From an uncultured bacterium (lineage in GTDB: Bacteria; Electryoneota; B3-LCP): DNA of 64,000 bases. A program made the translations under genes and the position numbers. This document shows positions 7,447-22,299 of the stretch, in pieces; positions within the stretch are counted from its first letter, which is position 1, and every line of letters begins with the position of its first letter. The notes under the pieces are model-generated. The model saw only the letters and a program-made list of their open reading frames with translations. It was not told where the DNA came from and searched no databases. The stretch lies in assembly GCA_964623265.1 (NCBI GenBank), contig CAZUTK010000005.1, positions 746-64,745 of the forward strand, given 5' to 3'.

Positions 7447-8988
7447 ATGGCATCCCTGAATGAACAGACCACCGTTCAGACTGAAAGAGAAAAGCCACGC
7501 GACGCTGTGGAATCCTCTCGTTCGTTCAACTTGCAGGTCATCGCGAAGAAGTTGGATTGGAAGAGAGGGTTCTTCATTTTTTTGGGTCTGGCGCTTTTCT
7601 TGGCGGTTTATTGCGCGCCGCCTTTTGCGGATGCTGTAGATCCTCAGGGAAAGCATTTCGTCCTCTCTCAGGAAGGGAAAGCCGCATTGGGGCTCTTCCT
7701 GCTGGCTTCCACCTGGTGGATTTTCGAGGTGGTTCCGATCGGCGTGACGGGGATCCTCATCGGAGTTGTGCAGGCGCTGTTTCTCATCCGCAAAGCGGAC
7801 GTCGCGTTCAGCAATTTCTTCGATCCGTCGGTCTGGTTCATCTTCGCTTCGCTGGTCATCGGCAGGACCTTTACTAAAAGCGGGCTGACGCAGCGTATGG
7901 CGTATAATATGCTGGTGATGGTCGGCGAGAAGACCAGCATGATCTATCTGGGGTGTTTTGCGCTGATCGCGCTGCTCACGCTGCTGATGGCTCACACCGC
8001 CGTAGCCGCCACGGTCTATCCGCTTCTGGCGGCGATTTATTCCTTGTATCAGGAGGACAACCAGCCCACCCGTTTCGGCAAGGGGTTGTTCATCGGGATG
8101 GCGTTCGTGGCTGGGGCCGGCAGCATCGTGACGCTGTTGGGCGCCGCTCGCGGCGCCGTCGCCATCGGCTTCTTCAAGGATATGGCGGGACGGGAGATTT
8201 CGTTTGCGGAGTACACCTATTACCAGCTCCCCATCGGATGGATTATGGTTCTGCTGCTTTGGGCGTTTTTCATGATCTTCTTCAAGCCAGAGCGGAAGAC
8301 CATCCCGGGACTGCGCGAACGGGCGAGAGGGCTGGCGGCACGGCTGGGTCCGATGAAGAAGGTGGAATGGCAGACTCTGATCATCGTTCTGGCGGCGATT
8401 CTCATTCTCAGCCTGAGGTCTTTTATACCCGCCTTGATGCCGTTGGACAAGACGGGCATCATTCTGGTGACCACGCTGCTATTTTTCCTTCTGAAGATTC
8501 TGACGCTGCAGGATCTGGAGGAGATTCCTTGGAACATCATATTGCTTTTTGGCGGAGCGATGAGCATCGGCTTTTGCCTCTGGCAGACGGGGGCGGCAAG
8601 CTGGCTGGCTGTGCATTGGTTGACTTTGTTCCAACATGCGCACTGGTTTCTCTTCATCATGGGCATCGCCTTTTTCGTGTTGATCATGACCAATTTCATT
8701 ATGAATGTGGCGGCGATCGCCATTTCGATGCCGATCGCTCTGGTGATCGCTCCCTACCTTGGTGTAGCGCCGGAAATCGTGCTCTTCGCTTCCCTGGTGA
8801 CGGCGGGTATGCCCTTTATGTTGTTGATCGGGGCGGCGCCCAACGCCATAGCCTACGAGAGCAGACAATTCACATCTGCTGAATTTTTGCGCGCCGGGAT
8901 CGTCGCCAGCGTCTTGCTCCTGCTGGTGTTGGGAGTATTCATTCTGGTGATCTGGCCTCTGATGGGGATGCCGGTTCTGGCGAAGTGA
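7447..8988 (+). CDS. Anion permease of the ArsB/NhaD superfamily (DASS/SLC13-like); likely a di/tricarboxylate or other anion transporter.
   Basis: Multi-TM protein of 513 aa. The C-terminal hairpin motif 'GAAPNAIAY' is paralogous to the permease domain of the 11317 gene ('GTPNNAIAF'). It sits at the head of the signalling operon. Confidence 0.55.
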   Translation: MASLNEQTTVQTEREKPRDAVESSRSFNLQVIAKKLDWKRGFFIFLGLALFLAVYCAPPFADAVDPQGKHFVLSQEGKAALGLFLLASTWWIFEVVPIGVTGILIGVVQALFLIRKADVAFSNFFDPSVWFIFASLVIGRTFTKSGLTQRMAYNMLVMVGEKTSMIYLGCFALIALLTLLMAHTAVAATVYPLLAAIYSLYQEDNQPTRFGKGLFIGMAFVAGAGSIVTLLGAARGAVAIGFFKDMAGREISFAEYTYYQLPIGWIMVLLLWAFFMIFFKPERKTIPGLRERARGLAARLGPMKKVEWQTLIIVLAAILILSLRSFIPALMPLDKTGIILVTTLLFFLLKILTLQDLEEIPWNIILLFGGAMSIGFCLWQTGAASWLAVHWLTLFQHAHWFLFIMGIAFFVLIMTNFIMNVAAIAISMPIALVIAPYLGVAPEIVLFASLVTAGMPFMLLIGAAPNAIAYESRQFTSAEFLRAGIVASVLLLLVLGVFILVIWPLMGMPVLAK

Positions 8989-9024: not shown

Positions 9025-10707
9025 ATGGCGGAAGAATCGAAAAACACCGCGACGGCGGGCGGCAGGATCCTCCGGGATCGGTATTATCGGGAACTGCTGC
9101 GCAAGAATCTGTTGCGTCTGGCGTTCACCTATCTCGCCCCTCTCGTTCTCCTGACCATCTATTTTTACGCGCAATATGTGAATATATCCCGGGAGAGCCG
9201 GGCGCACCATCTGAAATCCGTGGCGGAGCATCAGGCGAATACTCTGGATCTGTTTTTGAATGAGCGCGTCGTCAATCTCGCCAATTTGATTGACGATCCC
9301 AAGTTGAAGATTCCGCCAACCGGCGGCGCGATGGAAGTGATGCTGCACCAGTTGAAGAAAAACAGCGATACATTCACGGATGTGGGTTTTTTCGATTCGA
9401 CCGGCGTGCAGCTCGCCTACGAAGGTCCCTTGCCTTTTTTGGAGAACCGAAATTATTCCACGGAACCGTGGTTCGTCCGCTTGCGGGGGAAGGACGATCA
9501 CTTCATCATTACGGATAACTATCTCGGATTCCGGCAAAAGCCGCATTTCACGATTGCGGTGAGCCGCGAAATTCAGAATCGCTACGTGGTATTGCGCGCG
9601 ACGTTGGATCCGCAGAAGTTTTATGAATACGTCATTGCGCAAGAAGGCTTGAGCGATGTGGATTTGTCGGTGGTCAACCGCGATGGGATCTATCAATTGG
9701 TGTCGCCGAAGATCGGGCTGCCGTTGGAGAGCTCATCGGTAGTGCCGCCGTTGTCGCCGCGCCTGGGCTGGTTGAATTCCCGCGGGGAAGCGAACTCGGG
9801 GGAATTCGCTTACGCCTGGCTGCGGAACGCGGATTGGGCGGTCATCGCCAGACCCTCTGGAGAGAGCGAAAAGATTCCTCTGTTCAGCAGCCGAATGGGG
9901 ATTCTAGTCTTTTCCGCCGTGATCATTTTCGGCGTGCTGTCCGTGATCGTCATCCGTTCGAAGAAGCTGGTGGAGCTGCAGATTGAGAAGGAGATTACCA
10001 AGGCGCAGTTCGAACATGCCGCCAAGCTGGCGTCCGTGGGGGAGTTGTCCGCCGGCATCGCGCACGAGATCAACAATCCGCTGGCGATCATCGCGGAAGA
10101 GGTCGGATTGATCAAAGACCTGATGAATCCGGAGTTCAAGACGGGCACCGCCTTCGAGGATTTAAAGCCTCACCTCGACAACATCCACGACGCGGTCTTC
10201 CGTTGTCGCGACATCACCCGCAAGCTGCTGAGTTTCGTGCGCAAGACGGACATCAAGCTGAAGCCGCACCACATCAATATGTTGATTGACGAAATCGTGG
10301 ATGCCTTCTGGATACGCGAGATGGAAGTATCCAACATCGTCATAGAGAAGAGATACGCCGCGGATCTGCCGGAGATCGTTACGGACGGGAATCAGCTCAA
10401 GCAGATCTTTTTGAACATTCTGAATAACGCCGCGGACGCAATCACTCCGCCCGGAAAGATTACGATATCCACCTCCTATGCGGATGACCACATCTCCGTC
10501 GCCATCTCGGATACAGGCAAGGGCATCACTCAGGAACAGATGGAGAAGATTTTTCTTCCGTTTTATACGACCAAGGAACCGGGGAAGGGCACCGGTTTAG
10601 GGCTGTCGGTGAGCTACGGGATCGTGAAGAGTCTGGGGGGGAAGATCCTGGTCGAAAGCATTCCGGGGAAGGGGAGCGTTTTCACGGTGGTGCTGCCGGT
10701 AAAATAG
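9025..10707 (+). CDS. Sensor histidine kinase with a periplasmic Cache-like domain between two TM helices.
   Basis: H-box 'AGIAHEINNPLAII', N/G-box region 'LNILNNAADA...DTGKGI...GTGLGLSV'. Two hydrophobic segments flank a ~250 aa extracytoplasmic domain. Paralog of the 15285 kinase. Confidence 0.8.
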   Translation: MAEESKNTATAGGRILRDRYYRELLRKNLLRLAFTYLAPLVLLTIYFYAQYVNISRESRAHHLKSVAEHQANTLDLFLNERVVNLANLIDDPKLKIPPTGGAMEVMLHQLKKNSDTFTDVGFFDSTGVQLAYEGPLPFLENRNYSTEPWFVRLRGKDDHFIITDNYLGFRQKPHFTIAVSREIQNRYVVLRATLDPQKFYEYVIAQEGLSDVDLSVVNRDGIYQLVSPKIGLPLESSSVVPPLSPRLGWLNSRGEANSGEFAYAWLRNADWAVIARPSGESEKIPLFSSRMGILVFSAVIIFGVLSVIVIRSKKLVELQIEKEITKAQFEHAAKLASVGELSAGIAHEINNPLAIIAEEVGLIKDLMNPEFKTGTAFEDLKPHLDNIHDAVFRCRDITRKLLSFVRKTDIKLKPHHINMLIDEIVDAFWIREMEVSNIVIEKRYAADLPEIVTDGNQLKQIFLNILNNAADAITPPGKITISTSYADDHISVAISDTGKGITQEQMEKIFLPFYTTKEPGKGTGLGLSVSYGIVKSLGGKILVESIPGKGSVFTVVLPVK

Positions 10708-10736: not shown

Positions 10737-11312
10737 ATGGCATTGGAGAGAGTGAAAGATATCATGTTGTCTCTGGACGACTACGCCGTCGTGGGGATGG
10801 AAGCCACGATGGTGGATGCGTTGTGCGCTCTGGAGGCGGCGCAGAAGAAACTTCCGCCGGATCGCCAGCCCCATCGCGCCGTTCTGGTGGTGGACGACAA
10901 GGGCAACATCGTCGGGAAGTTGGGGCATCTGGCATTCTTGAAGGGACTGGAGCCGAAATACGACAAGATCGGCGACATCAACGTGCTTTCCCGCGTCGGA
11001 CTCAGCCAGGAATTCATCAATTCCATGCTGGACAATCTGAGTCTCTGGAAGGAGAGCTTTGAGGATTACGTGCAGCGGGCTCGCAGGACGAAGGTGAAAG
11101 ATGTGATGCACTCGGTTGTAGAGAGCATCTCAGAAGACGCGCCGTTAAGCGAAGCGGTGCATAAACTGGTCATGTATCAGACCCTATCCCTGCTTGTCAC
11201 TCGGGGCGAAAAGGTCGTTGGGATATTGCGGCTGTCCGATCTCTTTTCCGTGATCGCGCATATCATTCGGAAGAAAGTTGGCTGCGGTGAAGAAACAAGC
11301 CAGGAGAAGTGA
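10737..11312 (+). CDS. CBS-pair domain protein (stand-alone).
   Basis: Two CBS-like repeats across ~190 aa. No other domain is evident. Confidence 0.5.
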   Translation: MALERVKDIMLSLDDYAVVGMEATMVDALCALEAAQKKLPPDRQPHRAVLVVDDKGNIVGKLGHLAFLKGLEPKYDKIGDINVLSRVGLSQEFINSMLDNLSLWKESFEDYVQRARRTKVKDVMHSVVESISEDAPLSEAVHKLVMYQTLSLLVTRGEKVVGILRLSDLFSVIAHIIRKKVGCGEETSQEK

Positions 11313-11316
11313 CCCT

Positions 11317-13389
11317 ATGCCGAAAGTGCTGCTAATTGATGATGAGGACAAGTTTCGGACGTCCCTTGCCGACCGCCTCAAACTGCGAGGATATGCGAAC
11401 ATCGCCTTGAACAGCGGTACGGACGTCGTCAAAATCATCCGCAAGGATCCTGAGATTGATGTTGTGGTGCTCGATCGTCAAATGCCGGGCATCAGCGGGG
11501 AGCAGGTATTGCGAGAGATCAAGCAATACCGTCCCGAGTTGCAGGTCATTATGCTGACGGGGTACGGCAGTGTGGCGTCGGCTATGGAAACCGGGCGTCT
11601 GGGCGCTTTCGCCTACCTCGAGAAGCCCTGCGATTTCGACCAGTTGATCGAAACGATCGAGCGGGCGCGCAAGGACAAGGCGCGTGTGCTGGAGAAATAC
11701 GAGATCGCTGAAATCCAGAAGGATTCCCTCCTGAAATGGTGCTGGGGCAGACACAATTACCGTCCGGGGATCATCCTGTTGGGCGTTCTGATTTTCGCCG
11801 CAACGATTCTGATGCCCACTCCGCGCAGGCTGATCGAGATTCTCTCCACTCCGAAGCGGGCTCAAGTTCTAAATCCCACGACGGGCAAGATGGTGGATGA
11901 TCCCAGCGATCCGATCACCGGCTATGCGAGTTTCCGGAAGATGAAGGCGGGGGAGTCCATCGCCGAGTACTACAGTCGTTCCAATAAGCTGGAGAAGACC
12001 GTCAGGGACGAATTCGGCAAGAAGGTGGAGGTGCGCACTCTGACCGCGCAGGAAGCCGCCGTGAAGGCGAAAGTGATGCTGGGGACGCTCTTCGTGGCGG
12101 CGCTTTTCTGGGCGACGGGCGCCATTCCCATCGGCATCACCGCGCTGGTGGTGGGCGTCTCGATGTACTTCATGGGCGTGATGCAGCCGGATGACATTGC
12201 ACAGGCGTACGCCAAGGATGCGGTGATCTTCATCTTCGGGGTGCTGGCGGTGGCGATCGCCATCAGCAAATCCGGTCTGGACAAACGCATCGGGCTATTG
12301 CTGCTGGGACCTTCTAAATCGCTGCCGCGATTGATGTTCTTGTTCCTGCCTATGATTGGGATCGCCTGTTCCTTCCTCTCGGAACACGCGCTGGTGGCGT
12401 TCATCATGCCGCTTTTTATGTTCGTCTACGCAGCTTCCGTGCGGGAGGCGGGGGTCGAGGAGGACGCGCCTCTTGCGGTGATGCTGGTGCTGTCGCTCTG
12501 TTTCGCCGCCAACTGCGGCGGGCCCGGCTCGCCGGCGGCCGGGGGGAGAAACGCCGTGATGGTGGCGATTCTAAGTGATTACGGGGTGGCGCCGTCTTTC
12601 GCGCAGTGGGTGAAATTGGGTCTGCCCTATGTGCCGGTGATGTCGCTGGTCATCGCCACATACTTTTTTCTCGTATTTCGGGGGAAAATCAAGGCGAAGA
12701 AGTTGAATGTCTCCTCGATGGTCAAGCAGGCGGCGGCGAAGATCGGGCCGATGAATCGAAATGAATACATCACCGCCGTGATTCTGATCTTGTTGATCAC
12801 CCTCTGGATCACCGCCAGCGATAAGCTGGGGATGGGCGGTCCAGTGATCCTGGCGCTGGTGCTCTTGAATATTTTCCGGATCGTCACTTGGGGGGACATC
12901 ACCAAGATCCACTGGGAAGTCGTGGCGCTGTACGCCAGCGCCAGCGCAATGGGTAAGGGGCTTGCCGTCACCGGTGCGGCTCTGTTCATGGCGGATGTGT
13001 TCGTCGGGTGGTTGCCGGAATTTCTGCGGACCGGTACAGGATTGGCAGTCGCCAGCAGCATCTTCACAGGGATCACCACTCAGTTTATGAGTGACGGGGC
13101 GACGGTATCCGCCATCGGGCCGGTGGTGGTGCCGATGGCGACGCTGACGGGCACGCACCCTTGGATGGTGGGCTTGGGGGCGGCGTTCGCTTCGTCTTTC
13201 GCGCATATGATGATCATCGGCACACCCAACAACGCCATCGCCTTCACGATGGCAAGAGACCCGGTCACCGGCAAGCAGTTGGTGACATTAGGGGATTTCT
13301 TCAAGCATGGCTTTGTCGTCCTGCTGCTATCCTGGGCGGTGCTCTGGATCTGGCTGTTCTACGGGTACTGGCGCTGGATCGGGTTTTAA
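11317..13389 (+). CDS. Fusion of an N-terminal response-regulator receiver domain to a C-terminal ArsB/NhaD-superfamily (DASS-like) anion permease.
   Basis: REC motifs 'KVLLIDDE', 'VVVLDRQMPGISG', 'IMLTGYGS', 'AYLEKP' in the first ~125 aa, then ~560 aa with 10+ hydrophobic segments ending in 'IIGTPNNAIAF'. The ATG at 11317 has RBS 'caggagaag' and lies directly after the upstream stop. Confidence 0.7.
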   Translation: MPKVLLIDDEDKFRTSLADRLKLRGYANIALNSGTDVVKIIRKDPEIDVVVLDRQMPGISGEQVLREIKQYRPELQVIMLTGYGSVASAMETGRLGAFAYLEKPCDFDQLIETIERARKDKARVLEKYEIAEIQKDSLLKWCWGRHNYRPGIILLGVLIFAATILMPTPRRLIEILSTPKRAQVLNPTTGKMVDDPSDPITGYASFRKMKAGESIAEYYSRSNKLEKTVRDEFGKKVEVRTLTAQEAAVKAKVMLGTLFVAALFWATGAIPIGITALVVGVSMYFMGVMQPDDIAQAYAKDAVIFIFGVLAVAIAISKSGLDKRIGLLLLGPSKSLPRLMFLFLPMIGIACSFLSEHALVAFIMPLFMFVYAASVREAGVEEDAPLAVMLVLSLCFAANCGGPGSPAAGGRNAVMVAILSDYGVAPSFAQWVKLGLPYVPVMSLVIATYFFLVFRGKIKAKKLNVSSMVKQAAAKIGPMNRNEYITAVILILLITLWITASDKLGMGGPVILALVLLNIFRIVTWGDITKIHWEVVALYASASAMGKGLAVTGAALFMADVFVGWLPEFLRTGTGLAVASSIFTGITTQFMSDGATVSAIGPVVVPMATLTGTHPWMVGLGAAFASSFAHMMIIGTPNNAIAFTMARDPVTGKQLVTLGDFFKHGFVVLLLSWAVLWIWLFYGYWRWIGF

Positions 13390-13406: not shown

Positions 13407-13895
13407 ATGCCGGACAAAATCAAACTGCTCATCGTGGACGATGAGGTGAAATTTCTCGATTCCATCGCACAACGTTTGGAGATGCGCGGGCTGCATGTGA
13501 CCAAGGCGAGCAACGGGCAGGACGCCGTGCAATTCGCCCGCAATCAGAAGTTCGATCTGGCGCTGCTCGATCTGAAGATGCCCGGGATGGACGGCAAGCA
13601 GGTGCTGGAAATCCTGAAGAAGGAACACAAGCACATCGAGGTCATCATCTTGACGGGGCACGGATCGCTGGAATCCGCCGTGGAATGCACGAAGCTAGGC
13701 GCCTACGGATATCTTCCCAAACCCTATGAGCTCGACAGTCTGCTGGAGATTCTGAAAGAAGCCTATGAAGCCCGCCTGAAGAAGAAATTCGAGTTCGATC
13801 AGGAGAGGATGGAGAAGATTATGAAGCTGGCGACCGGCAGCAGCCCACTGGGTATCCTGCGATCTCTGCGGGAACTGGATGATGACGAAAAATAA
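13407..13895 (+). CDS. Stand-alone response regulator receiver (CheY-like) protein.
   Basis: 'KLLIVDDE', 'LALLDLKMPGMDG', 'IILTGHGS', 'YLPKP'. There is no output domain. Confidence 0.8.
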   Translation: MPDKIKLLIVDDEVKFLDSIAQRLEMRGLHVTKASNGQDAVQFARNQKFDLALLDLKMPGMDGKQVLEILKKEHKHIEVIILTGHGSLESAVECTKLGAYGYLPKPYELDSLLEILKEAYEARLKKKFEFDQERMEKIMKLATGSSPLGILRSLRELDDDEK

Positions 13896-14028
13896 GACAT
13901 GGGAGCGGCGTTTTTATCGGCAGATCGGAACCCTTCCGGGCTGATGCGAAGTTCACTTATTGAGTATGCGGGGCGAGTTCAGGCTCCGATTTCAACCGGC
14001 GACGATTTAAAAGACGGGGAGAGGACAG

Positions 14029-15288
14029 ATGGCGGTCATAGCTCTGTTCAGCGGATCCTACTGCCACGGCGAAGAGGCGGCGGAAGCCCTGGCGAAAAAA
14101 CTGGGATATCCGTGTATCGAAAAGCAGGTGCTCGCCGAGACGGCTAGCCGGTACTCTCTGTCAGCGGACAAGATTCAGAGGGCGATTCAAGGTCCTCCGC
14201 CGCTTTTCGCCTCCAAATATCATCGGGAAAGGACGGTGATACTGTCCCGTTTGAAAGCGGTGCTGGCGGAATTCATCCAGCCGGATCGGGTGATCTGCCA
14301 TGGGTGTCTGAGCCATCTGATTTCCCGGGACATCACTCATGTCCTGCGGGTGCTCCTCATCGCCAATCAGGATTACCGCGTGCAGACGGCGATGACCGCC
14401 GCGAAACTCTCCCGAAAAGAGGCGGTCAAGCAGATCAAGAAGGACGATGAGGCGAAGGCGCAGTGGACGCAGTTGTTGTTCGAAAAAGCGCCTTGGGATC
14501 CGAGCCTTTACGATATCGTGCTCCCCATGCATGAGACTTCGGTTGAGGAGGCGGTTCGGATTATCGCCGAAAACAGCGCTAAAGAGGCCGTAGCGACGAC
14601 TTCGCAATCTCGGCAAGCCGCCGCGGATTTTCTGCTTCAAGCCCGCGTTGAAACGGCGCTGGGCGAAAAAAGCGACGGGCTGGAAATCCGGTGCACGGAC
14701 GGGCAGGTTACACTTGTGATCAACAAGACCGTCCTGCGGCTGGATCCATTTCAGGAAGAAATCCGGCAGATCGCTGCTGCGGTTCCCGGAGTGAGAAAGG
14801 TGGAGACGAAAGTGGGTCCGAAGTTCAATCAGCCCAGCATCATCCGCGATGTGGATCTCGAGTTGCCGAAGAAGGTTCTTCTGGTGGACGACGAAGTCGA
14901 GTTCGTGCATACTCTTTCGGAGCGGTTGCAGACCCGCAATCTGGGATCGTCCGTCGTGTACGACGGGGAGCAGGCGCTGAATTTCGTCGCCACGGAGGAG
15001 CCCGAAGTGATGGTGCTGGATTTGAAGATGCCCGGGATTGACGGCATTGAAGTTCTGCGCCGGGTCAAGCACGACCATCCCAATGTGGAGGTGATTATCC
15101 TGACGGGACACGGATCGGAGCGGGAGGAGGCGTTGGCGAAGGAGCTGGGGGCTTTTGCTTATCTCCATAAGCCCGTCAACATTGACGTGCTGGCGAAGAC
15201 GATGAAGGAAGCCTATCGCAGGATCAGCGAGAAGAAGGCGTCCGCGGGCGGTGAATCCGGGAAGAGCTCCGCGAATTCGTCATCGTGA
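14029..15288 (+). CDS. Three-part fusion: cytidylate-kinase-like family N-terminal domain with a degenerate P-loop, a BON-like middle segment, and a C-terminal REC domain.
   Basis: N-terminal 'IALFSGSYCHGEEAAEALAKKLGYPCIEKQVL' resembles the Cytidylate_kin2 family but lacks the GxxGxGK/GSGG P-loop. C-terminal 'KVLLVDDE...VMVLDLKMPGIDG...IILTGHGS...YLHKP' is a REC domain. Confidence 0.55.
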   Translation: MAVIALFSGSYCHGEEAAEALAKKLGYPCIEKQVLAETASRYSLSADKIQRAIQGPPPLFASKYHRERTVILSRLKAVLAEFIQPDRVICHGCLSHLISRDITHVLRVLLIANQDYRVQTAMTAAKLSRKEAVKQIKKDDEAKAQWTQLLFEKAPWDPSLYDIVLPMHETSVEEAVRIIAENSAKEAVATTSQSRQAAADFLLQARVETALGEKSDGLEIRCTDGQVTLVINKTVLRLDPFQEEIRQIAAAVPGVRKVETKVGPKFNQPSIIRDVDLELPKKVLLVDDEVEFVHTLSERLQTRNLGSSVVYDGEQALNFVATEEPEVMVLDLKMPGIDGIEVLRRVKHDHPNVEVIILTGHGSEREEALAKELGAFAYLHKPVNIDVLAKTMKEAYRRISEKKASAGGESGKSSANSSS

Positions 15289-16997
15289 GTCAACCTATGC
15301 CTTTCGCATCCGCGCAAAGAGACGATTCCGCCGCCGAGAAATCGGTGCACGGCGAACAGACGCGCTACCGTCGGCTGTGGTGGTATTCCGTGATCCTGAT
15401 GGCGCTGGTTTCGCTGACGCCGCTGGTCATCCTGACCTTCGTCAACATCCACCAGGCGCAGAAAGCCATCCGCGAGGAGATGCGTTTCCCCATCGCGCGG
15501 CTGTTGTCCAATACCAAGAAGGCGCTGGAGTTCGTGATTGCGGAGCGGAAATCCGCTCTGCGGCTGGTCATCAGCGAAAAAGCATATGAGGAGCTGGCGA
15601 GCGATGAGGGGCTGGCGCAGGCTTTCAATAACCTGAAGGAATCGTTCGGCGGGTTCGTGGATCTCGGGCTGGTGGATGCAGATGGCAATCAGAATTTCTA
15701 CGTTGGACCCTATGACCTGAAAGGCAAGAACTACCGGGACCAAGCCTGGCTGCACGAAGTGCGACTGCGCGACGTGTACGTCAGCGACGTCTTTATGGGC
15801 TTCCGGAATTTTCCTCACTTCATCATCGCCGTCAAGCAGAACTCCGCGCGTGGCGGATCTTACGTCCTGCGCGCGACGATTGATATGCACCTTCTCAACC
15901 AGCAGATCACCGCTCTGGATCTGGGACCTTCCAGCGACGTTTTCATCGTCAACGCCGACGGTATCCTGCAGACCAATTCCCGCTTCCACGGCAAGATTCT
16001 CGAACCCTGCACGATCCCGCTTCCCAAGTATTCCGACACCGAAATGATCCAGGAGTTTACCGAGAAGGGTCAATCTTTTCTTCTGGGCTACGCGTTCATC
16101 GAAAAATCGCCGTTCATTCTGATGATCATCCAGAATCAGAAGGATTTGATGCCGAACTGGCTCGCCCGCCGGCAGGATCCCTTCTGGTTTCTGGCGGGCA
16201 GCAGCGTTCTGATTTTGCTGGTTGTACTGGGGGTTTCCACCTATACGGTGCATCGGATCCGCAGCGCCGACATCCGCCGGGCGAAGGCGTTTCACAATCT
16301 GGAATATACGAACAAGATGGCGTCCATCGGGAGACTCGCCGCCAGCGTGGCGCATGAGATCAACAACCCCATCGCCATCATCAATGAGAAAGCCGGATTG
16401 CTGAAGGATATGGCGACCCTGACGCCTGATTTCACGCAACGCGAGAAGGTGCTGAAATTGTTGGATTCCATCCACAATTCGGTGGAACGTGTCAGCACCA
16501 TCACGCATCGTCTGCTGGGATTTTCCCGGCGGATGAACGCGCACATGGAGCTGATTGACCTGCCGTCTTTGCTGAAGGAAGTCCTGAGTTTTCTGGGCAA
16601 GGAGCTGAGCCATCGCAACGTTTCCGTCACCTTCGAGGTTCCGGATAATTTTCCGGCGGTGGAAAGCGACCGCGGGCAACTGCAGCAAGTGTTCCTGAAT
16701 ATCATCAACAATGCGATCGCCGCGATCAAGGAAGGCGGCTGGATCCGATTCACTCTGCTGGAGGTGGAGGCGGGCGGGGTGGCGGTGAAAATCTGCGACA
16801 ACGGCACAGGGATTTCCCCGGAGGATCTGAAACACATCTTCGAGCCTTTCTTCTCCACCAAGGGGGAATTCGGCACAGGACTGGGTCTTTCCATCACCTA
16901 TGACATCATCAAGAAGCTGGGGGGGGAAATTCAGGTGGAGAGTCAGCTGGGGAAGGGAACCTGTTTCACAATCTTATTGCCGCGTCAGAAGGCTTAA
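15285..16997 (+). CDS. Sensor histidine kinase with a Cache-like periplasmic domain; paralog of the 9025 kinase.
   Basis: 'ASVAHEINNPIAII' H-box, 'LNIINNAIAA...DNGTGI...GTGLGLSI' ATPase motifs, TM helices 'LWWYSVILMALVSLTPLVIL' and 'FWFLAGSSVLILLVVLGV'. GTG start overlaps the upstream stop. Confidence 0.8.
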   Translation: MSQPMPFASAQRDDSAAEKSVHGEQTRYRRLWWYSVILMALVSLTPLVILTFVNIHQAQKAIREEMRFPIARLLSNTKKALEFVIAERKSALRLVISEKAYEELASDEGLAQAFNNLKESFGGFVDLGLVDADGNQNFYVGPYDLKGKNYRDQAWLHEVRLRDVYVSDVFMGFRNFPHFIIAVKQNSARGGSYVLRATIDMHLLNQQITALDLGPSSDVFIVNADGILQTNSRFHGKILEPCTIPLPKYSDTEMIQEFTEKGQSFLLGYAFIEKSPFILMIIQNQKDLMPNWLARRQDPFWFLAGSSVLILLVVLGVSTYTVHRIRSADIRRAKAFHNLEYTNKMASIGRLAASVAHEINNPIAIINEKAGLLKDMATLTPDFTQREKVLKLLDSIHNSVERVSTITHRLLGFSRRMNAHMELIDLPSLLKEVLSFLGKELSHRNVSVTFEVPDNFPAVESDRGQLQQVFLNIINNAIAAIKEGGWIRFTLLEVEAGGVAVKICDNGTGISPEDLKHIFEPFFSTKGEFGTGLGLSITYDIIKKLGGEIQVESQLGKGTCFTILLPRQKA

Positions 16998-17010
16998 GCG
17001 GGAGAGCACG

Positions 17011-17382
17011 ATGCAGAAAATCCGCGTCCTGTTGATTGACGATGAAGAGGAATTGGTTTCCACGCTGGTGGAACGTCTGGATATCCGCGGCGTGCAGGCG
17101 GAGTGCGTCACCAACGGGACGGAGGCGTTCGCACGATTGCGGGAGTCGTCTTTCGATGCAGCGGTTATTGATTTGAAGTTGCCGGGGATGAGCGGCATTG
17201 ATGTGATGAAGAGGATCAAATCGGAGCACCCTGAAATGGTCATCCTGTTGACCACCGGTCACGGATCCGTCAGCGAAGAGCACGAGGGAATTCCGCCGGA
17301 AGCCGCAGATGTTCTTTACAAGCCGATTGACATCGAAGTCCTCGTATCTAAATTGAAAAGCTCTCTGCGGGAGGGGAAGTGA
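17011..17382 (+). CDS. Stand-alone response regulator receiver protein.
   Basis: 'RVLLIDDE', 'AAVIDLKLPGMSG', 'ILLTTGHGS', 'LYKP'. 123 aa. Confidence 0.75.
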   Translation: MQKIRVLLIDDEEELVSTLVERLDIRGVQAECVTNGTEAFARLRESSFDAAVIDLKLPGMSGIDVMKRIKSEHPEMVILLTTGHGSVSEEHEGIPPEAADVLYKPIDIEVLVSKLKSSLREGK

Positions 17383-18071
17383 CGGAATCGAAGGCGAGAG
17401 AATGGCTTAACGAGCGCGGACTGGCGTTTTTCGGGAAGATCACCGCCAGCGTCACTCATGAGTTGAACAACGTGATGTCCATCATCGAGCAGGTTTCCGG
17501 GTTGCTGGACGACCTCTGCGCGGGTGCCGAGAGCGGCAGGCCGCTGGAGCCCGAGAAAATCCGGGGGATTTCCGAGCGGATCGGCAAACAAGTGGAACGC
17601 GGGGTGAGTATCATTCAGAGGATGAACAAGTTCGCTCACAGTGTGGACGAACCGGTCAAGAACTTCGACCTCGTTGAGCTGACGGAGAATCTCGTGGAGT
17701 TGTCGCGGCGATTCGCGGGATTGCGCAAGCTGAAGATCGAGTGGCGCCCCCCCGATGCTCGCGTGATGCTTGTAAGCAAGCCCTTCCTGCTGGAGCAGGT
17801 TATTTTCATGGGGATAGATGCGGCGATGCAGAGGTCCCGCCGGGAGGGTGTGATCCGGATCGAGGTCCAGCCGGATGCTGCGGGGGCGCGCGTCGGGATC
17901 TCGACGGAGGCGGAAGCCGACGCGGAGACCGGGATTCCGGATGCGACGGATTCCGATTTTGCGGCGTTACTCTGCGCCGAACTGGCGGCGGATCTGAAAG
18001 CCGGCGCGGCGAACGGGAAATGGAACTGGGAACTTCTGCTTCCTAATTTCAGCGCGGAGGTATCGAAATGA
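17379..18071 (+). CDS. Histidine-kinase-like protein with an intact H-box but a degenerate or absent ATP-binding catalytic domain. Candidate phosphotransfer or phosphatase module.
   Basis: 'ITASVTHELNNVMSII' DHp H-box. The downstream region lacks N, G1 (DxGxG) and G2 (GxGLGL) motifs. There is no TM segment. It overlaps the flanking genes by 4 nt on each side. Confidence 0.5.
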   Translation: MTESKAREWLNERGLAFFGKITASVTHELNNVMSIIEQVSGLLDDLCAGAESGRPLEPEKIRGISERIGKQVERGVSIIQRMNKFAHSVDEPVKNFDLVELTENLVELSRRFAGLRKLKIEWRPPDARVMLVSKPFLLEQVIFMGIDAAMQRSRREGVIRIEVQPDAAGARVGISTEAEADAETGIPDATDSDFAALLCAELAADLKAGAANGKWNWELLLPNFSAEVSK

Positions 18072-18499
18072 GCGATGGAAAAGTGCTGCTGGTGGATGAC
18101 GAGATCGAGTTCACGCAGGCTCTGGCGGAAAGGCTGGAGACGCGGGGGCTGAAGGTGGATGCCGTCAGCAGCGGAAAGGATGCTCTGCAGAAAGCGAAGG
18201 GGGGATCCTACGACGCGGTTTTTCTGGATTTGGCGATGCCGGAAATGGACGGCATCGAAACGCTGAAGAGACTTCTGGCGGAGAATCCCGATCTGCAAGT
18301 GGTGTTGTTGACCGGCCATGCGACGGTGCAGTCGGGGATTCAGGCGGTCAAGCAGGGAGCGATGGATTTTCTGGAGAAGCCCGCCAAGCTGGATGTCATC
18401 CTGGAGAAGATCAAGCAGGCGAAGACCAACCGGATTCTCCTGATCGAGAAGCAGAGCGAAGAGAAGATCAAAAAGATCATGGGGAAGATGGGCTGGTGA
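18068..18499 (+). CDS. Stand-alone response regulator receiver protein.
   Basis: 'KVLLVDDE', 'AVFLDLAMPEMDG', 'VLLTGHAT', 'FLEKP'. Confidence 0.8.
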   Translation: MSDGKVLLVDDEIEFTQALAERLETRGLKVDAVSSGKDALQKAKGGSYDAVFLDLAMPEMDGIETLKRLLAENPDLQVVLLTGHATVQSGIQAVKQGAMDFLEKPAKLDVILEKIKQAKTNRILLIEKQSEEKIKKIMGKMGW

Positions 18500-18509
18500 A
18501 AAACGGACG

Positions 18510-19154
18510 TCAGAACAGCCTGTACCCCATCGTGAACATCGGTTCCACCCAGAGGGTGGAATTGTCACCATCGTAAAAGAGGTTCATTCTCACCGTGACA
18601 TCCACGGAAACGCGGGGATGAAACAGGAAGAAGAGCCCCGGCGAGAGATGCGCGCCGATGGCATCGGAAGGGTCGCGTTCTTCGCGGATGGTGCCTTTCA
18701 ACGGTTCAGTCGTGCTGTAGATTTCATAATTGCCTTCCACCATGCCGAAGTGGACGTAGTCCATTCCGACGCCGAGATAGAGGAAATTGCTTCGATCGGT
18801 GGGGAAAAGCCGTCGAATTTCCAGGGAAGCCGCGTAAAAATCCGCTTTCACGTCCCAGACGTCCGGGGAAAGCGCCGCCAGCGTATCCGTCATCCAGTAA
18901 TAACGTTCCGTGTTGAGTTTGGAATACCCGCCCGTCAGCATCACCTGCGCATTCCAGTCGAACCAGTAGAGCAGTGATACGCCTCCGCCTAGACTGGCGA
19001 GGAAGCGGTCGCGATCCACACCGCCGGGCGACCAGACGTTGCCGGAGGCGGTGAGGAACAACCGGGGTTTCCATTTGGGCGTTTCGCGCGCTTCGGTTGT
19101 TAAGGCGAAGAGCAGCAGGCTGATGATCCAGATCAAAACCGCGAGTTTGCGCAT
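18510..19154 (-). CDS. Putative outer-membrane beta-barrel protein.
   Basis: Signal peptide 'MRKLAVLIWIISLLLFALTTEA'. Alternating amphipathic strands rich in aromatic residues. C-terminal '...MGYRLF' ending in Phe. Confidence 0.4.
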   Translation of the reverse strand: MRKLAVLIWIISLLLFALTTEARETPKWKPRLFLTASGNVWSPGGVDRDRFLASLGGGVSLLYWFDWNAQVMLTGGYSKLNTERYYWMTDTLAALSPDVWDVKADFYAASLEIRRLFPTDRSNFLYLGVGMDYVHFGMVEGNYEIYSTTEPLKGTIREERDPSDAIGAHLSPGLFFLFHPRVSVDVTVRMNLFYDGDNSTLWVEPMFTMGYRLF

Positions 19155-19201
19155 CGTGAATTCCGTAGCTATTATCAAAGTGGCGTTTGAAGCGGATGTT
19201 G

Positions 19202-20143
19202 TTATCTTCTCGGATCGTCGGTGCGCGGGGTCGGTTTGCGGGCGGAATCCCGGCTGAGCGACGCCAGCAGACGATCCAGGTCCTCGGCTTCATGGATTTC
19301 GGCTGCACCTTCGCGCCGCAGCAATTCATTTCCCATAAATCGCTGCGACAGGGTGGCGAAAGCCTGGATGAAGAGGGGGCGTTTCAGGCTTTGCGCTCGC
19401 GCCGCCGTATCCATCGTGCTCGAATTCAGCCGGGCTTCGATGACGATCACGGCGGAAGCCTGAGCGGCGACCAGCCGGTTGCGCCCCAGAGATGCTTTTC
19501 CCGACCAATCCGCGTCGGGCGGCTGTTCGCTGATCCAGACTCCTCTTTTCGCCAGGTCGGCGAAGGATTGGATGCCGGTTTCGGCGAGCGGGGAGAAATC
19601 GAAGCGTTCGGCGCCGCAGCCCGGGATGATGATCGTGCGCCCGCCGGCGCGCAAGGCGCCCAAATGCGCGTTCAGATCAATGCCGGCGGCGTAGCCGGAG
19701 ACGATGCTCCAGCCGCGCGAAGCCAGATACTCTGCGTAGTCCCGGGCGCGTTTCGCGGAGATCAAAGTGCAATCGCGGCTGCCGATGATGGCGACGGCGC
19801 GGTCGTCCTCGGGCAGCGGTTCGCCGGCGATATAGAGCACCGGCGGGGGATTGTACGCCTGACGCAGCTTGGGCGGATAATGGGAATCCAGTTTGGTGAC
19901 GACGCGCACCCCGAGCTTCGCCAGCGCGGCGATTTTCGCTGCGGTGGTTTTCAGAGTCTGAGATGCGCGGCAGATCGCTTCCGCCGTGCGGCCGTCCATA
20001 GAGGGGATTTCCCGAACCTCGTCAACCGGCGCTTCCAGAGCGCGCTTGACGCTGCCGAAGCGCTTCAGCAATTCGTCGAAAATCGCGTCGCCCATGCCTT
20101 CGATCGCGGCGACATGAGCCCAGTAGATGGTTTCATCCGTCAT
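19202..20143 (-). CDS. dprA: DNA-processing protein DprA (Smf).
   Basis: Rossmann-like core 'VAIIGSRDCT...IVSGYAAGIDLNAHLGAL...TIIIPGCG' characteristic of DprA. Confidence 0.75.
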   Translation of the reverse strand: MTDETIYWAHVAAIEGMGDAIFDELLKRFGSVKRALEAPVDEVREIPSMDGRTAEAICRASQTLKTTAAKIAALAKLGVRVVTKLDSHYPPKLRQAYNPPPVLYIAGEPLPEDDRAVAIIGSRDCTLISAKRARDYAEYLASRGWSIVSGYAAGIDLNAHLGALRAGGRTIIIPGCGAERFDFSPLAETGIQSFADLAKRGVWISEQPPDADWSGKASLGRNRLVAAQASAVIVIEARLNSSTMDTAARAQSLKRPLFIQAFATLSQRFMGNELLRREGAAEIHEAEDLDRLLASLSRDSARKPTPRTDDPRR

Positions 20144-20915
20144 ATATCTTTGCCTCGCTGCCCCAATATACTTTCGGGAGGAGTTTCCAGCTTTCGAACT
20201 TCTTCAAACCGGGCATATGAAATTGAAAGAAACGGAAGAACAGCGCTTCGATTCCCATACCGATCGCCGGCGTCACCGTCATCCGCGGGGCGGCGGGGGG
20301 GGGACAGCGATCCAGAAAGCGAAGCGCACCCCACATTTCCGCTTCGGCTTTCATGCTGTGCGGTCTTTTCCCGCTGCAATTGCGGCAGAGAAAGCCGCCT
20401 CCGGGCAGATCGAACGCAATGATCTCGCTGACCGCACCGCATTCCACGCAGCGGCTCAGATCCAGACTGAATCCTAAATGGCGGGCGATGTGCAGCAGAG
20501 CGCGCCAGCGGAGCGTCCAGGGGTTGCTTTCTATACTGTCCAGAGCGGCGAAGGTTTCCGTCAAGTCCTCCAGGAGATTCGGATTCTCGTCTTCGGGCAT
20601 CGTAACGCGCAGGATCGTTTCCGCCAGCGACAGCGCCGTGTACGTGCGGCTCAGATCCGCGCGCAGGTTTTGAAAACCCTGGATCAAATCCGACGACTTG
20701 AAATTGTGCAGGTCTCTGCCGGGGCGGTGATAGAATTGCAGTTCGATCCAGTTGAGGGTTTCCAGACCTCCCGGAAACTTCTTCGCGCCCTTTCTGCCTC
20801 CCTTCACCAGAACCGATACCCTGCCTTTCGCCCGGGTGAACAGGATGATGATTTTGGAAGATTCGCTGAATTTGCGGCTGTGCAGAACCACTGCATCGGT
20901 CTTCAGCAGCGCCAT
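20133..20915 (-). CDS. recO: DNA repair protein RecO.
   Basis: N-terminal OB-fold pattern 'LKTDAVVLHSRKFSESSKII...'. C-terminal Zn motif 'CVECG...CRNC'. Confidence 0.7.
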   Translation of the reverse strand: MALLKTDAVVLHSRKFSESSKIIILFTRAKGRVSVLVKGGRKGAKKFPGGLETLNWIELQFYHRPGRDLHNFKSSDLIQGFQNLRADLSRTYTALSLAETILRVTMPEDENPNLLEDLTETFAALDSIESNPWTLRWRALLHIARHLGFSLDLSRCVECGAVSEIIAFDLPGGGFLCRNCSGKRPHSMKAEAEMWGALRFLDRCPPPAAPRMTVTPAIGMGIEALFFRFFQFHMPGLKKFESWKLLPKVYWGSEAKIYDG

Positions 20916-20940
20916 GATTTCGTTTTCCCCGGGATCCCGC

Positions 20941-22299
20941 TCATTTCTCGATGAGAAAGAGCGCCGTGAGGCTGAGGTAGATCAGCAGCCCGATGATGTC
21001 GTTGGCGGTCGTGACGAAGGGACCCATCGAGAGCGCCGGATCCACGCCGATTCGCTTCAGCAAGATAGGCACCGTGGCGCCCAGCAGCGACGCGATGATG
21101 ATGTTCAGCAGCAGGATGTTGCCGATGAGCAAGCCGAGCCGCGGCTCGTGCAGCCAGACCGCTACGATGCTCCCGAGTACGGCGCCCAGCACGATGCCGT
21201 TCAACAGCGCCACCCGCAGTTCCTTCCAGAGGCGGGGTAGAAGATCCCGCAAGGTGATTTCGCCGGTTGCCAAGCCGCGCACGACGATGGAAGAGGATTG
21301 GATGCCGGTGTTGCCGCCCATAGCGGTGATCACCGGAACGAAGAATGCCAAGGCGATCATTTGCAGCAGACTCGCCTGAAAGTAATGCAGGACGGAAGCG
21401 GAGACCAAGCCGCCGAAGAGACCGGTCAGCAGCCAGGGGAGACGCTCGCGGGTGGTGCGCAAGGCGGAGCGGTCGCCCGGTTCTTCATCGCCTGTGCCGG
21501 CGATGATCGAGAGGTCTTCCTCCGCTTCTTCGGCGATGACGTCCATGATGTCGTCCACGGTGATTCTGCCCATCAGCCGGTGCGATGAATCCACCACGGG
21601 TACGGAAACCAGGTCGTATTTGCGCACGAGCGCCGCCACTTCCTCTTGATCCGTATCCGTATCCACCGAAATGATGTCGGTCTCCATGATGTCGGCGATG
21701 GGGGTTTGGGGTCTGGCGAGGATCAGCTCGCGGAGGCTGACCGCGCCCTTCAGGACGCCGTCTTGGGAGGTGACGTAAACCGTGTAGATGTCTTCGATCC
21801 CCTCGCTTTCATGCAGGTCGCGGATTTTTTGGATTGCCTGATCCACCGTATCCGTTTCCAGCACGGCGGCGACTTCCAGCGCCATAATGCCGCCGGCGGT
21901 ATCCTCTTCATACGCCAGCAGGCGGCGCATCTCGCGGCGGGACTCGAGATCCAGCGTGCTCAGGACCTTCTGCGCTTTTTCGTCGTCCAGCGCGCCGACG
22001 ACGTCCGCCGCGTCGTCTGATTCCAGTTCATCCAGCAGCCTGCCGATCTCTCCTTCGGGCAGTTTTTTCAGCAGCTTTTCCTGGATGTGCGCATCCAGTT
22101 CGACCAGCACTTCCGGCGAGAGTTGTTCCGGCAGCAGATCCCAGACGAAATTCTGTTCCAAACGCCCCAGTCGGGGGAAGATATCGGCGATATCTGAAGG
22201 ATGCAAAGAGCCCAAGAGCTTCTGCAATTCTTCCACTTCGCCCGCTTCCACCAGATCTTCGATCTGTTTGATGTATCCGATTATCCGTTCTTCCGACAC
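20941..22299 (-). CDS. mgtE: Magnesium transporter MgtE.
   Basis: N-terminal MgtE_N, a CBS pair and five C-terminal TM helices; 452 aa. Confidence 0.8.
   Translation of the reverse strand: MSEERIIGYIKQIEDLVEAGEVEELQKLLGSLHPSDIADIFPRLGRLEQNFVWDLLPEQLSPEVLVELDAHIQEKLLKKLPEGEIGRLLDELESDDAADVVGALDDEKAQKVLSTLDLESRREMRRLLAYEEDTAGGIMALEVAAVLETDTVDQAIQKIRDLHESEGIEDIYTVYVTSQDGVLKGAVSLRELILARPQTPIADIMETDIISVDTDTDQEEVAALVRKYDLVSVPVVDSSHRLMGRITVDDIMDVIAEEAEEDLSIIAGTGDEEPGDRSALRTTRERLPWLLTGLFGGLVSASVLHYFQASLLQMIALAFFVPVITAMGGNTGIQSSSIVVRGLATGEITLRDLLPRLWKELRVALLNGIVLGAVLGSIVAVWLHEPRLGLLIGNILLLNIIIASLLGATVPILLKRIGVDPALSMGPFVTTANDIIGLLIYLSLTALFLIEK

Follow-up and report, generated by a model that had tools for sequence, protein, structure and literature searches.

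The gene at 17379-18071 on the forward strand of the window, the whole 64,000-nucleotide stretch of DNA analysed here from an uncultured bacterium of the Electryoneota, probably encodes a histidine phosphotransfer protein that is derived from a histidine kinase, is unable to phosphorylate itself and possibly also acts as a phosphatase. The sequence evidence favours this assignment by a modest degree. The gene product (the target) is located between two stand-alone receivers (REC), which are named RECup and RECdn here for the positions of their genes upstream and downstream, and the same operon contains two sensor kinases, HK1 and HK2. The sequence-only reading, made before this analysis, had described an open reading frame (ORF) with a canonical H-box of the dimerization and histidine phosphotransfer (DHp) domain, overlapping a REC gene by 4 nt on each side. 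Both points were confirmed. The H-box SVTHELNNVMSIIEQ is encoded at 17448-17492, the RECup stop overlaps the target start in GTGA (17379-17382), and the target stop overlaps the RECdn start in ATGA (18068-18071). A GGAGG-like Shine-Dalgarno sequence is located 5' of both the target and the RECdn starts. The target gene and its parts, including the catalytic and ATP-binding (CA)-like domain, are as follows.

17379-18071, forward strand: target gene with a GTG start, 230 residues, soluble histidine-kinase-like protein composed of a DHp domain and a lid-less CA-like domain
17385-17642, forward strand: DHp helical hairpin, residues 3-88, with helices 3-51 and 58-88 assigned by DSSP on the model; it holds nearly all of the conserved residues
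17448-17492, forward strand: H-box SVTHELNNVMSIIEQ, read from the translation, with the His27 codon at 17457-17459, Glu28, and the codon of Asn31 (H+4) at 17469-17471
17658-18044, forward strand: CA-like alpha/beta domain, residues 94-222, predicted to keep a Bergerat-type fold, poorly conserved in sequence
17787-17831, forward strand: remnant of the N-box helix LLEQVIFMGIDAAMQ, residues 137-151, with M144 and A148 replacing both Asn
17892-17942, forward strand: remnant of the G1 strand, VGISTEA (residues 172-178, with T176 for Asp), and the loop EADAETGIPD (residues 179-188) at the expected site of the F/G2 ATP lid

The ATP site of a kinase is missing from the target. In the Pfam scan, the sole match was a sub-threshold one to HisKA (16 bits, E 0.012), and neither HATPase_c nor any other GHKL model matched at E<=1. 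By comparison, HK1 and HK2, both of them dCache kinases, scored 92-93 bits on HATPase_c. NCBIfam gave weak matches to full-length kinase models, which reached no more than 27 bits against cut-offs of 300-750 and covered at most residues ~5-188. No Pfam or NCBIfam model attains its curated cut-off on the target. BLASTP aligned target residues 8-186 to HK2 residues 340-510 with 27% identity (E 7e-12), and the alignment ends at the G1 box. When the target was aligned with HK1 and HK2 by MAFFT, M144 and A148 were found at the N-box Asn positions, T176 at the position of the G1 Asp, and the F-box/G2-box segment (…IFEPFFSTKGEFGTGLGLS…) was missing by a deletion of ~17 residues; the N, G1 and G2 boxes of HK2 are intact in the alignment. 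Thus, among the features that define a functional class I HisKA autokinase, the target has the DHp domain with the H-box His (SVTHELNNV, residues 24-32) and the CA fold, and lacks the N, G1, F and G2 boxes. The earlier statement that the C-terminal part carries none of the N, G1 and G2 signatures was borne out by Pfam, BLASTP, MAFFT and the family-wide alignment.

The predicted structure gives the same picture. An AlphaFold2 model of the target was built on a 35-sequence alignment and reached a mean predicted local distance difference test score (pLDDT) of 90.6 and a predicted template modelling score (pTM) of 0.84. In this model, a long helical hairpin (residues 3-51 and 58-88) precedes an alpha/beta domain (residues 94-222). 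The sole low-confidence stretch, with a pLDDT of about 57, is formed by residues 179-188, exactly at the lid position. Over residues 181-190, the mean pLDDT is 57. For the C-terminal half, the model thus gives, at high confidence, a CA (Bergerat-type) alpha/beta fold with the lid removed, and no divergent but intact ATP lid was found in the profile alignment or in the model. According to the model, the CA domain survives only as a structural alpha/beta domain. The sequence-only reading had called the protein a HisKA-only module acting as a phosphotransferase or phosphatase. The functional part of this proposal is supported, while the term HisKA-only does not hold, since a lid-less CA-like domain is kept in the model. 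In a PDB profile search, the closest solved relatives were real HisKA kinases, namely the DHp-CA fragment of ZraS (E 2e-11), ThkA, FixL chimeras and KinB. Matches to isolated CA domains ended at profile position ~180-190, and the ChpT structures 4fpp and 4qpj were not retrieved by this search with the target family.

The loss of the ATP site is a property of a large family. A word-indexed search found 138 relatives, nearly all of 217-242 residues and mostly without Pfam domains, which are labelled 'signal transduction histidine kinase', 'sensor histidine kinase', 'HAMP domain-containing histidine kinase' or 'hypothetical protein' in public records. When the family profile was run in a full HMMER scan, at least 1,214 clusters (50% identity) were recovered at E<=1e-30; apart from one fusion, the best 150 clusters were all 210-243 residues long. 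In the alignment of 241 members, His27, Asn31, Gly41, Asp45 and His87 are invariant (241/241), Arg74, Asp90 and Arg111 are each found in 240, and Glu28 is found in 231, with Asp in 8 of the others. When the initiator Met is left aside, 19 columns are at least 90% conserved; 18 of them are in the DHp domain (residues 17-90), and Arg111 is the only one in the CA-like domain. To judge from these columns, selection acts on the DHp domain. The N-box and G1 columns are occupied by hydrophobic residues (mostly Leu at the N-box), Gly or gaps across the family, and DxGxG occurs in 4 of the 241 members, which is the chance level for the pattern. Consistently, Pfam matched HisKA in 33 of 35 members scanned and HATPase_c in none. 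Members from Desulfobacterota keep the hallmarks GxITASVTHE…N…LNxFAH, and the lid is absent from them as well. The family-wide motif loss, together with real HisKA kinases as the closest solved relatives, indicates that an NtrB/ZraS-like transmitter gave rise to the family and that ATP binding was lost at an early stage.

It is very improbable that the target is a true autokinase whose ATP site has diverged beyond recognition, or a decaying non-functional paralog. The overall CA fold is kept and the public labels include 'sensor histidine kinase', as an autokinase would have it, but the lid is deleted, the N-box Asn and the G1 Asp are absent family-wide and no GHKL profile matches. The size of the family, its invariant DHp residues and the conserved gene order rule out decay.

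Four residues at the junction of the DHp and CA-like domains, N83, H87, D90 and R111 (residues 83-111, window positions 17625-17711), are family-specific and invariant or nearly so. At the matching positions, HK1 and HK2 have L, R, N/D and other residues. These four residues may lock the two domains rigidly together or make up another functional site.

With His27 and Asn31 invariant, Glu28 nearly so and the ATP site gone, the simplest interpretation is that receivers, and not ATP, supply His27 with phosphoryl groups, which it accepts and donates. Among HisKA kinases, kinase but not phosphatase activity depends on the acidic residue beside the His (CrdS, HK853; PMC3510030), and phosphatase but not kinase activity depends on the Thr or Asn at H+4 (PMC3510030). 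Since this phosphatase residue, Asn31, is invariant in the family, the target may also dephosphorylate one of the receivers.

The same residue brings up the possibility of a dedicated receiver phosphatase of the Red type. The E/DxxN motif would then dephosphorylate one receiver, such as RECdn~P or the phosphorylated receiver of the Cytidylate_kin2-REC protein encoded in the same operon (CK2-REC~P), without onward relay, and RECup would regulate or load the target. The invariance of Asn31 is in line with this, and so is the persistence of the target-RECdn pair at loci where the gene cassette is split (L006 and L008). A precedent is RedE from the 'four-component' RedCDEF system of Myxococcus xanthus, which does not autophosphorylate, takes phosphate from RedD through its His24 and dephosphorylates RedF (PMC2755868). 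RedE and the target are both short, soluble, kinase-like proteins that lack a sensor and have the His close to the N-terminus (His24 in RedE, His27 in the target). The RedE gene also follows a real kinase gene and is flanked by receiver genes, in an HK/REC/HK-like/REC operon. However, RedE has been depicted with a recognisable HATPase_c domain and needs ADP for its phosphatase activity, whereas the target family has no nucleotide site. A pure phosphatase should also tolerate loss of both His27 and Glu28, but both are kept. PhyT, whose ATPase domain is similarly degenerate, was at first regarded as a phosphatase; later work showed that it transfers phosphate from SdrG to PhyR in a system composed of kinase, single-domain receiver, PhyT and PhyR (PMC5898713). 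The two roles are not mutually exclusive. We regard a phosphatase without phosphotransfer as unlikely, but as the most serious of the alternatives.

The receivers on both sides of the target appear able to carry phosphate. The residues D10, D11, D54, T82 and K104 of RECup are intact in 72-74 of 74 orthologs, and the acidic pair, Asp54, Thr82 and Lys104 of RECdn are intact in 58-59 of 59. By the criteria given for intermediate and terminal receivers (Bruderlin et al., PMC9981736), the two proteins differ. The mean frequency of the top residue in alpha1 is 0.77 for RECup and 0.62 for RECdn, and in alpha4 it is 0.39 for RECup and 0.74 for RECdn. RECup has no C-terminal tail, and RECdn has a conserved helical tail of ~27 residues (~117-143) with a G-W end, the Trp of which is present in 52 of 59 orthologs. 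Such a tail may serve as a peptide that binds a partner. Loss of the aromatic switch was also considered as a criterion for RECup. It is true of RECup in the window, which has Val at K-3, but is not conserved in the orthologs (Y in 46, F in 12, V in 8 and L in 5, compared with F in 55 of 59 for RECdn), so that the contrast in alpha4 and in the tail was used instead. On this basis, RECup looks like an intermediate receiver and RECdn like a terminal one, which makes RECup a candidate phosphodonor and RECdn a candidate final acceptor or phosphate sink.

The DHp alpha1 helix below His27 resembles that of the HK2 orthologs (shared II, GLL and D), which is compatible with the target and HK2 docking the same or paralogous receivers. 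This resemblance, with the gene located near HK2, would also suit a non-catalytic pseudokinase similar to DivL or RetS, both of which are among the best structural matches to the target model. Such a protein would bind a phosphorylated receiver, or heterodimerise with HK2 through the DHp domain, and act allosterically without carrying phosphate. DivL has Tyr in place of the His, and the absolute conservation of His27 and Asn31 in 241 divergent members would be unexpected if phosphoryl chemistry were dispensable. Moreover, the tight translational coupling is to the receiver gene and not to the kinase gene. A pseudokinase is thus improbable.

The order of the genes supports transfer between receivers. 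Neighbouring ORFs at related loci were typed with the window proteins as queries, and the denominators below are the loci that could be evaluated. Of 85 loci, 77 have a receiver gene immediately 5' of the target, and in 59 of them the stop of this gene overlaps the target start. An HK2-type kinase is found upstream in 69 of 73 loci, a receiver gene downstream in 58 of 72 and a Cytidylate_kin2-REC gene in 53 of 67. In divergent members, the gene tables show a five-gene core of Cytidylate_kin2-REC, dCache kinase, REC (~122 residues), target and REC (~143 residues). A scan of species-representative genomes gave 79 loci, the best of which encodes a protein 46% identical to the target. The carriers include metagenome-assembled genomes (MAGs) of Zixibacteria, Ignavibacteriales, Calditrichota, LCP-89, Gemmatimonadota and Desulfobacterota, among others, and cultured carriers include Desulfamplus magnetovallimortis and Desulfobotulus alkaliphilus. 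Desulfosarcina variabilis is a further cultured carrier.

At two loci (L064 and L067), the kinase gene is followed directly by the target with no REC between them, as might be expected of a split kinase. In that case, the CA domain of HK2, or that of another kinase, would phosphorylate His27 in trans, and the target would be an additional DHp substrate through which phosphate reaches a different receiver. The homology of the DHp domain to that of HK2 and the retention of Glu28, which aids autophosphorylation, agree with such a scheme. It is nevertheless quite improbable, since a receiver gene stands between kinase and target in 77 of 85 loci and usually overlaps the target start. To our knowledge, there is also no precedent for a separate HisKA dimer that is trans-phosphorylated by the CA domain of another kinase.

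In the phosphotransfer reading, HK2 would autophosphorylate and phosphorylate RECup, RECup~P would give its phosphoryl group to His27 of the target, and His27~P would pass it to RECdn, to Cytidylate_kin2-REC or to both. By homology, the target would be dimeric. It might work as a relay or as a phosphate sink, in the manner of LovK/LovR, PhyT and RedE. We infer the identity of the donor and acceptors, the direction of flow and the physiological output. The idea of the sequence-only reading, that the protein shuttles or removes phosphate between the REC proteins, is supported by the DHp-centred conservation, the intact phospho-sites of the flanking receivers and the conserved REC/target/REC order.

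Several observations weigh against this reading. The His and the Asn at H+4 are also conserved in bifunctional kinases, and they do not separate transfer from phosphatase activity. The criteria for intermediate and terminal receivers rest on alphaproteobacterial cases, and Tyr or Phe is still present at the switch in the majority of RECup orthologs (58 of 74). The order is also not universal. Besides the two loci without an upstream REC, two others show only DASS and target genes (L006, which has RECdn too, and L049, which ends within the target gene), and the downstream REC is absent in ~19% of the evaluable loci. In favour of the reading, one protein of 349 residues (P0200, L088 1923-2972), encoded between a kinase and a REC gene, joins the family domain to a RECup-like receiver in a natural fusion. 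As it is a singleton on a 3.7-kb contig and an assembly frameshift is possible, it has little weight.

Kinase-derived phosphotransferases are already known, and the target resembles several of them without belonging to their families. ChpT from the CckA-ChpT-CtrA/CpdR system of Caulobacter crescentus has a lid-less Bergerat-like domain, does not autophosphorylate, has no bound nucleotide and shuttles phosphate between receivers (PMC3433190). The two proteins share the DHp hairpin with the His near the N-terminus, the C-terminal Bergerat-like domain without a functional lid and a similar size (about 205-230 residues). In contrast to ChpT, the target is outside the Pfam family HPTransfase, as the Pfam scan at E<=1 gives HisKA alone. 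Spo0B of the Bacillus subtilis Spo0F-Spo0B-Spo0A relay is likewise a kinase-derived dimeric hairpin phosphotransferase between a single-domain receiver and a second receiver, and its relay order is mirrored by the gene order kinase, REC, target, REC; however, the target has no match to Pfam SPOB_a or SPOB_ab. It also differs from Hpt domains, as there is no Pfam Hpt match and the model is a two-helix DHp hairpin with an alpha/beta domain. PhyT/PhyP of Sphingomonas melonis and PhyK and LovK of Caulobacter are kinase-like proteins that transfer phosphate between another receiver and a single-domain one (SdrG, MrrA). PhyK and LovK were both found to be phosphotransferases, and LovK-LovR a phosphate sink (PMC5964349). 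Unlike the target, these proteins are membrane-anchored or contain sensors, have a DHp domain of the HRxxN type and belong to the general stress response of Alphaproteobacteria, and the CA domains of PhyK and LovK are conserved.

The operon of the window extends over ten genes, which were assigned by Pfam. The nine genes around the target are listed below.

7447-8988, forward strand: DASS transporter
9025-10707, forward strand: dCache kinase HK1
10737-11312, forward strand: CBS protein
11317-13389, forward strand: REC-DASS fusion
13407-13895, forward strand: stand-alone REC
14029-15288, forward strand: Cytidylate_kin2-REC, the first gene of the cassette
15285-16997, forward strand: HK2, a dCache-HisKA-HATPase_c sensor kinase, genuine and likely the phosphoryl source
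17011-17382, forward strand: RECup, stand-alone receiver of 123 residues (Response_reg 2e-22)
18068-18499, forward strand: RECdn, stand-alone receiver of 143 residues (Response_reg 1e-29)

The same ten-gene order is found at a locus whose target ortholog is 81% identical (L004). Among the 44 distinct loci that span 11 kb or more, 38 have SulP and/or DASS genes no farther than 6 kb from the family gene (SulP in 30, DASS in 12). No DNA-binding domain was found on any receiver of the window operon or on any receiver type typed in the related cassettes. As the cassette contains no DNA-binding regulator and adjoins SulP/DASS (sulfate) genes, its output is probably the control of anion uptake. The Cytidylate_kin2-REC protein may be the output of the relay, since it is the only receiver of the cassette with an extra domain.

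A wider proposal is that the target is the hub of an unrecognised five-component phosphorelay without a transcription factor, which would control SulP/DASS transporters post-translationally. Its parts would be the dCache kinase, the intermediate receiver, the target, the tailed terminal receiver and the cytidylate-kinase-like receiver protein, conserved from Desulfobacterota to Zixibacteria, Ignavibacteriales and Calditrichota, and in some genomes the transporter would be controlled via a receiver fused directly to it. We put this forward tentatively, as a possible but rather doubtful extension of the phosphotransfer role.

The transporter encoded at 11317-13389 on the forward strand has a REC domain at the N-terminus of its DASS (Na_sulph_symp/CitMHS) part, and the DD, D, T and K residues of the phospho-site look intact. 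Such fusions are also present at L004 (690 residues) and L012 (677 residues). The arrangement suggests an anion transporter that is controlled directly by phosphorylation. The product of 14029-15288 contains a Cytidylate_kin2 domain, a faint BON match and a receiver, and its N-terminal P-loop region, SGSYCHGEE, looks atypical by eye. In the literature, no report was found that combines 'cytidylate kinase-like' with a response regulator and a histidine kinase. Sulfite-reductase-like genes are present at L001, and DsrC is encoded near the family gene at L007.

The neighbourhood has been described from another side. The DASS/SulP sulfate-transporter clusters of Desulfobacteraceae contain cache kinases, regulators and CBS proteins, and the kinases were proposed to sense sulfate (Sci Adv 2025, PMC11887813). 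The neighbourhood is the same, and family members are located in such clusters of Desulfobacula, Desulfobotulus and Desulfobacteraceae MAGs. The difference is that the components are treated there as ordinary kinase/regulator pairs that act on promoters. In the main text of that study, term searches turned up neither a phosphotransfer protein nor a receiver-only or cytidylate-kinase-like one.

The family is thus a large, unnamed and misannotated one of kinase-derived, lid-less phosphotransfer/phosphatase proteins, a kind that is already known. If its clusters, at least 1,200 in number, were recognised as phosphotransfer proteins and not kinases, the kinase labels in databases would be corrected, and an independently evolved case would be added to Spo0B, ChpT, PhyT and RedE. 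The most interesting aspect is the conserved multi-receiver cassette tied to sulfate/anion transporters. The SulP/DASS adjacency, the receivers without DNA-binding domains and the fusion of one window receiver to a transporter point to a multi-step, probably post-translational control of sulfate/anion uptake. This model differs from the transcriptional one now proposed for marine sulfate reducers, and could be examined in cultured Desulfobacteraceae.

Around the target itself, three overlapping ORFs at 17636-18571 (reverse strand), 17316-17639 (reverse strand) and 17741-18046 (forward strand) had no Pfam match and were taken as shadow ORFs. Promoter-like and terminator-like sites in 13800-18800 were not more numerous than expected from shuffled sequence, and no tRNA or Rfam family was found in the whole window. 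One promoter-like site, TTGACA-16-TAAATT (10/12 matches), is located at 17327-17354 on the forward strand, within the 3' end of RECup and 25 nt before the target start, and was given no weight. At L008, however, the target and the downstream REC form their own transcription unit. After the operon, convergent housekeeping genes occupy 18510-22299 on the reverse strand (an outer-membrane beta-barrel protein, dprA, recO and mgtE), and their order is the same at L004.

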